From Escherichia coli (GTDB lineage Bacteria > Pseudomonadota > Gammaproteobacteria > Enterobacterales > Enterobacteriaceae): 64,000 bases of DNA. This document shows positions 1,939-2,868 of the stretch, piece after piece. The stretch is taken from the NCBI RefSeq assembly GCF_003790525.1, contig NZ_CP033635.1; one strand, 5' to 3'. The notes beneath the pieces are model-generated. The model saw nothing but the letters and a program-made list of their open reading frames with translations, did no database searches and was not told where the DNA came from. The translations under genes and the position numbers were made by a program. Position 1 is the first letter of the stretch. Each line of letters begins with the position of its first letter.

Positions 1939-2868
1939 ATGGCGCGTTACGATCTCGTAGACCGACTCAACACTACTTTTCGCCAGATGGAACAAGAGCT
2001 GGCTGCATTTGCCGCTCATCTTGAGCAACACAAGCTATTGGTTGCCCGCGTGTTCTCTTTGCCGGAGGTAAAAAAAGAGGATGAGCATAATCCGCTTAAT
2101 CGTATTGAGGTAAAACAACATCTCGGCAACGACGCGCAGTCGCTGGCGTTGCGTCATTTCCGCCATTTATTTATTCAACAACAGTCCGAAAATCGCAGCA
2201 GCAAGGCCGCTGTTCGTCTACCTGGCGTGTTGTGTTACCAGGTCGATAACCTTTCGCAAGCAGCGTTGGTCAGTCATATTCAGCACATCAATAAACTCAA
2301 GACCACGTTCGAGCATATTGTCACGGTTGAATCAGAACTCCCCACCGCGGCACGTTTTGAATGGGTGCATCGTCATTTGCCGGGGCTGATCACCCTTAAT
2401 GCCTACCGCACGCTCACTGTTCTGCACGACCCCGCCACTTTACGTTTTGGCTGGGCTAATAAACATATCATTAAAAATTTGCATCGTGATGAAGTCCTGG
2501 CACAGCTGGAAAAAAGCCTGAAATCACCACGCAGTGTCGCACCGTGGACGCGCGAGGAGTGGCAAAGAAAACTGGAGCGAGAATATCAGGATATCGCTGC
2601 CCTGCCACAGAACGCGAAGTTAAAAATCAAACGTCCGGTGAAAGTGCAGCCGATTGCCCGCGTCTGGTACAAAGGAGATCAAAAACAAGTACAACACGCT
2701 TGCCCTACGCCGCTGATTGCACTGATTAATCGGGATAATGGCGCGGGCGTGCCGGACGTTGGTGAGTTGTTAAATTACGATGCCGACAATGTGCAGCACC
2801 GTTATAAACCACAGGCGCAGCCGCTTCGTTTGATCATTCCACGGCTGCACCTGTATGTTGCAGATTAA
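1939..2868 (+). CDS. tus: DNA replication terminus site-binding protein Tus
   Basis: 309 aa from [10 protein letters not shown]; the tracked ORF begins 4 codons upstream at a GTG, but the ATG at 1939 matches the known N-terminus. Confidence 0.9.

Follow-up and report, generated by a model that had tools for sequence, protein, structure and literature searches.

Background

Between convergent genes, bidirectional terminators were reportedly found with SEnd-seq by Ju et al. in 2019. Convergent genes can also lie so close together that their coding sequences (CDSs) overlap. Such overlaps were analyzed by Lillo and Krakauer (2007, Biol Direct 2:22, PMC2174442), who found 4 nucleotides (nt) to be the modal overlap length, with CTAA, TTAA, CTAG, and TTAG as the tetramers, and counted 58 convergent overlaps in Escherichia coli. 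The 4-nt phase (-4) is the expected modal class because [CT]TA[AG] is a stop on both strands. The same authors noted that the rho-independent terminators of such genes must fall within the coding sequence of the partner, and intrinsic terminators were predicted there for 23 of the 116 convergently overlapping E. coli genes. A second relevant class was described by Dar and Sorek (2018, Nucleic Acids Research (NAR) 46:6797, PMC6061677): Rho terminates transcription diffusely downstream of the gene, and PNPase or RNase II trims the RNA back to a protective stem-loop that has no U-tract and is followed by RNA richer in C than in G. Here we describe two junctions, tus/fumC and purR/punR, in a 64,000-nt stretch of E. 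coli chromosomal DNA (NCBI RefSeq assembly GCF_003790525.1, contig NZ_CP033635.1), which is referred to in its full length as the window. In both pairs the two stop codons share the tetramer TTAA. We consider it probable that this overlap is the neutral end state of old, tight junctions, and that transcripts are ended by a strand-specific hairpin in the partner CDS together with Rho and are then trimmed by exonucleases.

Two gene pairs with shared stop codons

Both pairs show the features of a 4-nt convergent stop overlap, as the genes lie on opposite strands, overlap by exactly 4 nt on a permitted tetramer, and are real genes in both frames (Table 1). In the window sequence, the TTAA of the first pair lies within GCAGATTAACCCC (2860-2872) and that of the second within GTCGTTAATCACC (56268-56280), and the list of open reading frames (ORFs) contains a plus-strand ORF that ends at 2868 and a minus-strand ORF at 2865..4268. 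Gene calls were taken from the PGAP annotation of E. coli strain XDL, which is 100% identical to the window over the compared segments. The same 4-nt overlaps are present in K-12 MG1655 (tus 1684259-1685188 and fumC 1685185-1686588; purR 1737844-1738869 and punR 1738866-1739798), and the tus/fumC junction was recovered at an identity of at least 96.9% from 5423 of 5426 complete E. coli genomes. An earlier note on this DNA had claimed the overlap of the tus and fumC stops on TTAA, the same architecture at purR/punR, and the lack of an intergenic terminator at either pair. The two overlaps were confirmed by the window sequence, the ORF list, PGAP, and K-12, and no intergenic terminator is present as no intergenic space exists. 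Misannotated stops, which the note had named as one way in which it could be wrong, are ruled out by the Tus and FumC homologues, which end equivalently in 79 other species; PunR homologues and a gene with PurR-type (LacI-family) Pfam domains also have equivalent ends in other genera. A search of both junctions against Rfam returned no family at the gathering threshold, only chance-level matches with E-values up to 10.

Hairpins encoded within tus and punR

The 300 nt after each of the stops were folded, and hairpins were assigned z-scores from 200 shuffles. In the fumC-sense RNA this resulted in a hairpin with a 15-bp stem and a 16-nt loop (5' arm 2855-2841, UACAGGUGCAGCCGU; loop 2840-2825; 3' arm 2824-2810, GCGGCUGCGCCUGUG), followed by a weak U-tail, GUUUAUAACG, at 2809-2800. 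The hairpin has a folding energy of -29.2 kcal/mol and a z-score of -4.6, with none of the 200 shuffles folding as well; the z-score of the opposite strand is -3.4. When tus loci were retrieved from 80 Enterobacteriaceae species, the hairpin was found in all 80. In an 81-sequence alignment, 89% of the helix cells are paired, compared to 30-49% in slid-partner controls, and six pairs carry compensatory changes on both sides, values that were reached by 0/500 shuffles. Owing to G-U wobbles, one of them invariant, pairing in the 12-bp core reaches 96.6% on the fumC-sense strand versus 85.5% on the tus-sense strand, an asymmetry that suggests the fumC transcript to be the functional one. One helix pair joins a Tus Pro codon (CCG; or TCG, ACG, and GCG for Ser, Thr, and Ala) through its first base to the synonymous third base of an Arg codon (CGG, CGA, CGT, or CGC), and 7 of the 13 non-Pro variants are compensated. 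The real codon choice also folds better than synonymous shuffles in most of the species tested. After the stem, 78 of the 81 sequences contain 3-4 U in 8 nt, fewer than in the U-rich tract of about 7-8 nt that characterizes a canonical intrinsic terminator. A promoter and terminator consensus scan of 1500-4700 reported no site near the tus/fumC junction; the scan misses the fumC hairpin because its loop is 16 nt long and its tail has only 4 T. A second, smaller hairpin directly follows the first (Table 1) and folds in most species, with 81% of its cells paired and almost no covariation, which gives it weak support.

The purR-sense RNA contains a 12-bp hairpin of -23.2 kcal/mol inside punR. Here the strand asymmetry is larger, with a z-score of -5.9 on the purR strand and only -1.8 on the punR strand. 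Judged from single-sequence folds, an equivalent hairpin is present at the same place, with different arm sequences, in eight of nine other Enterobacterales loci. The stem is followed by GCCACUCC, which again is not the U-tract of a canonical intrinsic terminator. For punR itself, no hairpin was found near the stop in the 300 nt folded, the best candidate lying at +159. For tus, a weak hairpin with six U residues (2944..2992, plus strand) was considered as a terminator and rejected, as its z-score is -0.9, 30 of 200 shuffles fold as well, and the fold is not conserved; the U-run is probably incidental because it is the complement of the FumC Lys-Lys codons.

Two natural variants of the tus locus were observed. 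Klebsiella indica is the sole species of the 80 without fumC beside tus and instead has a convergent transporter-like ORF 65 nt downstream (3933-5375 of the retrieved locus); the core of the tus hairpin persists there, though with a codon choice whose fold is no better than that of synonymous shuffles. E. coli FDAARGOS_1251 (NZ_CP069445.1) carries a deletion that begins within rstB and ends 13 nt short of the fumC stop (3499-3514 of the retrieved locus), through which tus and the embedded fumC hairpin are gone and fumC is left intact. This natural tus deletion is a possible test strain for the role of the hairpin.

Transcript ends and Rho termination

The purR 3' end was mapped in two published studies. 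Term-seq by Adams et al. (2021, PMC7815308) placed it at K-12 1738907/8, where it is assigned as a primary end of purR that lies antisense to ydhB (punR), and the TRS study (Nat Commun 2023, PMC10687069) independently placed it at 1738909/10 and draws the same hairpin in its supplement. In both maps the purR mRNA thus ends 38-41 nt into punR. On the fumC side, Adams et al. (PMC7815308, supplementary file 2) reported a region of Rho termination on the strand antisense to tus, at K-12 1684895 (-), where reads upstream and downstream went from 83/16 in untreated cells to 36/39 in those given bicyclomycin (Rho score 5.6, p 5.8e-7). That study lists similar Rho regions antisense to folM (downstream of ydgC) and antisense to ydhK (downstream of sodC); purR, punR, and tus have no entry among its published Rho termination regions. 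The SMRT-Cappable-seq supplements hold no entry for these genes, and no paper dealing specifically with the overlap or with a fumC terminator was found in the literature on tus with fumC.

The earlier note had further proposed that every full-length mRNA ends inside the partner gene. This is borne out by the purR end in punR, the Rho region antisense to tus, and the listing of these pairs as overlapping transcripts (PMC12288877). The Term-seq check that it suggested could be carried out on the published maps for purR, whose end lies within punR, and not for fumC, tus, or punR, for which no end is called. With respect to the consequences it drew, termination signals within the coding sequence are found as the conserved hairpins in tus and punR, while transcriptional interference is not implied by the overlap.

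The base composition past the stops was calculated in windows of 78 nt. In fumC-sense RNA, the windows from +53 to +170 after the stop contain 25-26 C and 14-17 G, which is within the top ~4% window-wide. The first 78 nt after the tus stop contain 30 C and 14 G, within the top 0.65% of such windows, and a similar bias is seen in other species. For purR the counts are 28 C and 16 G in the window from +27, which overlaps the 3' arm, and 24 C and 14 G in that from +40.

Table 1. Coordinates of the features discussed, given as positions in the window
Feature	Position	Strand	Remarks
tus CDS (replication terminus-binding protein)	1939..2868	+	stop TAA 2866-2868; ORF list, PGAP of XDL, K-12 equivalent
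fumC CDS (class II fumarase)	2865..4268	-	stop TAA, 2867 down to 2865; ORF list, PGAP, K-12
TTAA common to the tus and fumC stops	2865..2868		4-nt convergent overlap
Hairpin in fumC-sense RNA	2810..2855	-	within the last ~20 tus codons
Second hairpin in fumC-sense RNA	2779..2800	-	GGUGCUGCACAUUGUCGGCAUC
fumC-sense RNA past the hairpin, rich in C and poor in G	2698..2800	-	candidate Rho loading (rut) zone
Region of Rho termination from the literature, antisense to tus	2575 (K-12 1684895)	-	~290 nt past the fumC stop; coarse resolution
C-rich, G-poor stretch right after the tus stop	2869..2946	+	opposite the 3' codons of fumC; candidate zone of Rho loading on tus mRNA
purR CDS	55250..56275	+	stop TAA 56273-56275
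punR (ydhB) CDS	56272..57204	-	stop TAA, 56274 down to 56272
TTAA common to the purR and punR stops	56272..56275		
12-bp hairpin in purR-sense RNA	56282..56311	+	GUUGCGGGAGUC / GGCUCCCGCAGC; within the last ~12 punR codons
purR mRNA 3' end, experimentally mapped	56313..56316 (K-12 1738907-1738910)	+	2-5 nt after the stem, inside punR
TerB-type replication terminus site	1906-1928	+	AATAAGGATGTTGTAACTAAAGT; ends 11 nt before the tus start codon
Spacer-bearing convergent junction with hairpin	9041-9084		
Spacer-bearing convergent junction with hairpin	20740-20774		
Spacer-bearing convergent junction with hairpin	32392-32434		
Spacer-bearing convergent junction with hairpin	37753-37798		
Spacer-bearing convergent junction with hairpin	51113-51162		
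Spacer-bearing convergent junction with hairpin	53382-53526		
Spacer-bearing convergent junction with hairpin	59968-60006		
Spacer-bearing convergent junction with hairpin	62237-62276		

Conservation and origin of the overlaps

In 79 of the 80 species, tus and fumC are convergent neighbors, and the gap between them is small in all 79. The gap is -4 in 45 species (Escherichia, Citrobacter, Salmonella, Kosakonia, and Kluyvera; TTAA or TTAG), 0 in 19 (Enterobacter and Lelliottia), -11 in 11 (Klebsiella and Raoultella), -14 in one, +10 in two, and +35 in one. The purR and punR genes are convergent neighbors in the nine other Enterobacterales loci, with gaps ranging from -74 in the Klebsiella-type locus through -13 (Serratia), -4 (Citrobacter and Cedecea), 0 (Yokenella), and +6 (one reduced genome) to +18 or +19 (Enterobacter, Cronobacter, and Kosakonia). 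In the Klebsiella-type locus the called punR product is 334 amino acids long and the 74-nt overlap with purR (3432-3505 of the retrieved locus) is far longer than in other genera; it may be a true long overlap or reflect a miscalled stop. Since the phase differs across genera, the exact TTAA can be argued not to be selected. On this comparison of sequences, the tight abutment appears to be old and stable, and TTAA appears to be one of several interchangeable outcomes and not a conserved design.

Eleven convergent junctions are present in the window, of which two are at -4, one (ydhK/sodC) is at 0, and eight have gaps of 35-145 nt, which is at most a mild local excess. The tetramer itself is trivial, as it is explained by stop complementarity and exceeds chance by little. 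The eight junctions with a spacer each have one strong GC-rich hairpin, several of them flanked by an A-run and a T-run in the usual layout of a bidirectional terminator. The stops of ydhK (+) and sodC (-) abut at zero gap (TAATTA, 41540-41545), and the sodC-sense RNA has a strong hairpin ~24-67 nt past the stop within the ydhK CDS, which is the arrangement also seen for fumC. Another 4-nt overlap, that of folM/ydgC, lies shortly before the start of the window (576-579 of the retrieved locus), and four tight convergent pairs (tus/fumC, purR/punR, ydhK/sodC, and folM/ydgC) therefore lie within about 60 kb.

The purR/punR loci suggest how one of the overlaps arose. In Enterobacter, Kosakonia, and Cronobacter, whose gap is +18 or +19, the punR stop is located in the loop of the hairpin. 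E. coli PunR is seven residues longer (310 versus 303 amino acids), and its frame, without the loop stop, reads through the 5' arm of the hairpin to the complement of the purR stop. Loss of the in-loop punR stop is thus a concrete candidate origin for the TTAA of this pair.

For tus, three distant Tus loci were used as outgroups. In the first (47% identity), a 74-nt gap separates the convergent tus and fumC and contains a canonical hairpin and U7 for fumC, and no embedded hairpin is present. In the second (58% identity), tus is directly followed by a canonical bidirectional terminator, and the embedded hairpin is retained only as a degenerate remnant; the third (36% identity) has neither fumC nor an embedded hairpin. 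The Tus motif IPRLHLY, which encodes one hairpin arm, is kept in all three outgroups; the complementary arm, QAQP, occurs only in the clade that lacks a spacer. This distribution, drawn from three loci, would fit a move of the fumC 3' hairpin into tus upon loss of the spacer.

It is conceivable, though we hold it only tentatively, that the last 20 codons of tus were recruited in Enterobacteriaceae to encode the 3' hairpin of the fumC mRNA, and that the E. coli punR frame likewise absorbed half of the purR hairpin after losing its stop. In favor of recruitment for tus, the PRLHL arm is universal in Tus and the QAQP arm is found only where the intergenic terminator has been lost, and replacements of the Tus Pro by Ser, Thr, or Ala go along with synonymous changes in the other arm. 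If this were true, a protein sequence would be partly shaped by its neighbor's need for an RNA 3' end, and the hairpin and Rho may also shield tus from read-through during oxidative-stress induction of fumC.

Proposed mechanism

An overlap of this kind would originate when a convergent ORF loses its stop and is extended up to the complement of the partner's stop, [CT]TA[AG], which halts it in one frame, leaving 4 nt. No intergenic spacer would be needed, as the signals are probably strand-specific and placed in the coding DNA of the partner. One gene in each pair (fumC or purR) has a strong hairpin just past its stop, written in the last codons of tus or punR. With little or no U-tract, such a hairpin would not be an efficient intrinsic terminator, and RNA polymerase would run on into partner-antisense RNA that is untranslated and C-rich, on which Rho could load and terminate transcription within a few hundred nt. 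Termination antisense to a gene is ordinary in this respect because that RNA is untranslated and a normal substrate of Rho. Trimming by 3' exonucleases back to the hairpin would then leave a stable 3' end, which for fumC would be expected at the hairpin described above. The tus and punR transcripts, which appear to be without a dedicated hairpin, are probably ended diffusely by Rho on C-rich antisense RNA; for tus mRNA this is the likeliest fate because it has no conserved hairpin and is C-rich and G-poor directly after the stop.

Several observations weigh against this mechanism. The Tus amino acid sequence forces much of the fumC hairpin, as synonymous shuffles still fold at ~-20 kcal/mol; 6 of the 13 non-Pro variants at the Pro/Arg pair are uncompensated; and the species are related, so that shuffle statistics such as the 0/500 for covariation overstate independence. 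The outgroup evidence consists of three loci only. The Rho score was calculated from 800-nt windows, which makes the +290 position coarse, and bicyclomycin raises antisense transcription in general. In the published Adams and TRS 3'-end datasets examined, no 3' end is called at the fumC hairpin, nor for tus or punR. Finally, purR is not listed as a Rho termination region, and its hairpin could act as a weak intrinsic terminator or pause site.

Alternative explanations

The embedded hairpins might instead be true intrinsic (Rho-independent) terminators, with Rho as a minor backup, which we consider unlikely. Both have GC-rich stems of terminator-like size and energy, a conserved GGUUUAUA or GGUUUAAA comes after the fumC stem, and purR, whose 3' end maps directly past its stem, is absent from the Rho-dependent list; the 2007 prediction of terminators in partner CDSs also fits such a role. 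However, the tails of both hairpins are poor, the 16-nt fumC loop is long for an intrinsic terminator, a simple scan for a hairpin plus T-run found nothing at the junction, and the published read-through past fumC increases 5.6-fold with bicyclomycin.

Another explanation holds that the overlap is a regulatory device, or excludon, in which the 3' transcripts pair and are cut by RNase III, or interfere, so that each gene lowers the other (for example, fumC induction lowering Tus, or PurR versus PunR). All four tight pairs are in the published list of convergent excludons in E. coli, which draws on at least 50% of 58 RNA-seq sets (PMC12288877), but any pair without a spacer must show transcript overlap, so the listing is no evidence of regulation. 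The adjacency is conserved across the family, and purR and punR both regulate purine metabolism. Against these points, no locus-specific RNase III, double-stranded RNA, or inverse-expression data were found in the literature, the PunR paper makes no mention of the overlap, and the hairpins and Rho look suited to limiting antisense read-through and not to exploiting it. We therefore regard regulation through the overlap as quite doubtful.

Head-on collisions of RNA polymerases could also drive termination, with the hairpin as a pause site that fixes the meeting point, as in the bidirectional terminator model put forward for hundreds of convergent gene pairs in E. coli with Rho-independent terminators that do not resemble intrinsic ones. 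Hairpins do form on both strands here, but unequally, and the fumC read-through is sensitive to Rho, unlike that class. As collision efficiency rises with expression (bioRxiv 10.1101/2022.10.23.513370) and tus, purR, and punR are weakly expressed regulators, collision seems very unlikely at these junctions. Rho sensitivity and strand asymmetry together argue against both intrinsic termination and collision as the main route, though for individual transcripts either of them, or excludon-type regulation, may still apply.

It is most improbable that nothing here was selected and that overlap and hairpins are by-products of coding constraint and chance, for which it can be said that the -4 phase follows mechanically from stop-codon complementarity, that the phase drifts among genera, and that the Tus peptide sequence alone yields a fairly stable fold, since compensatory and wobble changes maintain the helix on one strand, the structure of the purR hairpin is kept through changes in the sequences of its arms, precisely the loci with an intergenic terminator lack the hairpin embedded in tus, and a mapped 3' end coincides with the purR hairpin.

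Neighboring features

A TerB-type replication terminus site lies upstream of tus (Table 1) and differs by one mismatch from the K-12 TerB sequence. A Ter site just before tus is a known arrangement for tus autoregulation. The class I fumarase gene at 4411-6057 (-) is named fumB by PGAP in XDL and fumA at the same position in K-12, an inconsistency of automatic naming. Just upstream of purR, at 54859-55249 (-), a full-length match to the Rfam small RNA family STnc550 (396 bits) covers the small gene cydH/ynhF.

Significance

The overlaps and their class are already known from reference annotations, the 2007 analysis, and the 2025 listing of overlapping transcripts, and what is added here is a modest extension: conserved, strand-asymmetric hairpins in tus and punR, a link to spacer loss, and an origin of the purR/punR overlap from a stop in the hairpin loop. 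The weight of these junctions as a discovery is small. They provide a worked example of how bacteria may do without an intergenic terminator, with the 3'-end signal in the CDS of the convergent neighbor and Rho clearing untranslated antisense read-through. Annotators and terminator predictors should look inside CDSs at junctions without a spacer, and strains in which tus or punR is recoded or deleted may lose the 3' hairpin of fumC or purR without this being noticed.

Comparison with known systems

The configuration of both pairs is that of the class described by Lillo and Krakauer (PMC2174442), with no difference in kind; tus/fumC and purR/punR are not treated individually there. ExcludonFinder (NAR 2025, PMC12288877) lists tus-fumC, purR-punR, ydhK-sodC, and folM-ydgC of E. 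coli MG1655 as overlapping 3' transcription. The excludon concept adds mutual repression by interference or RNase III, whereas for these pairs only the transcript overlap is listed. Bidirectional or collision terminators (bioRxiv 10.1101/2022.10.23.513370) are alike in that a convergent pair has one hairpin at its junction, but the hairpins described here are strand-asymmetric and located in CDSs, and read-through past fumC is Rho-sensitive, whereas that class is Rho-independent. The canonical intrinsic terminator shares the stable GC-rich stem-loop directly downstream of the stop and differs in its U-tract, which is weak or absent here, in the 16-nt loop of the fumC hairpin, and in that both hairpins were missed by the consensus scan. 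The class of Dar and Sorek (PMC6061677) differs in that its stem-loop and Rho loading zone lie in an untranslated spacer and not in the CDS of a convergent neighbor, and trimming at the present loci is presumed. It resembles these junctions in the stable stem-loop without a proper U-tract, the excess of C over G downstream, the 3' end after the stem (purR), and the bicyclomycin-sensitive read-through (fumC).

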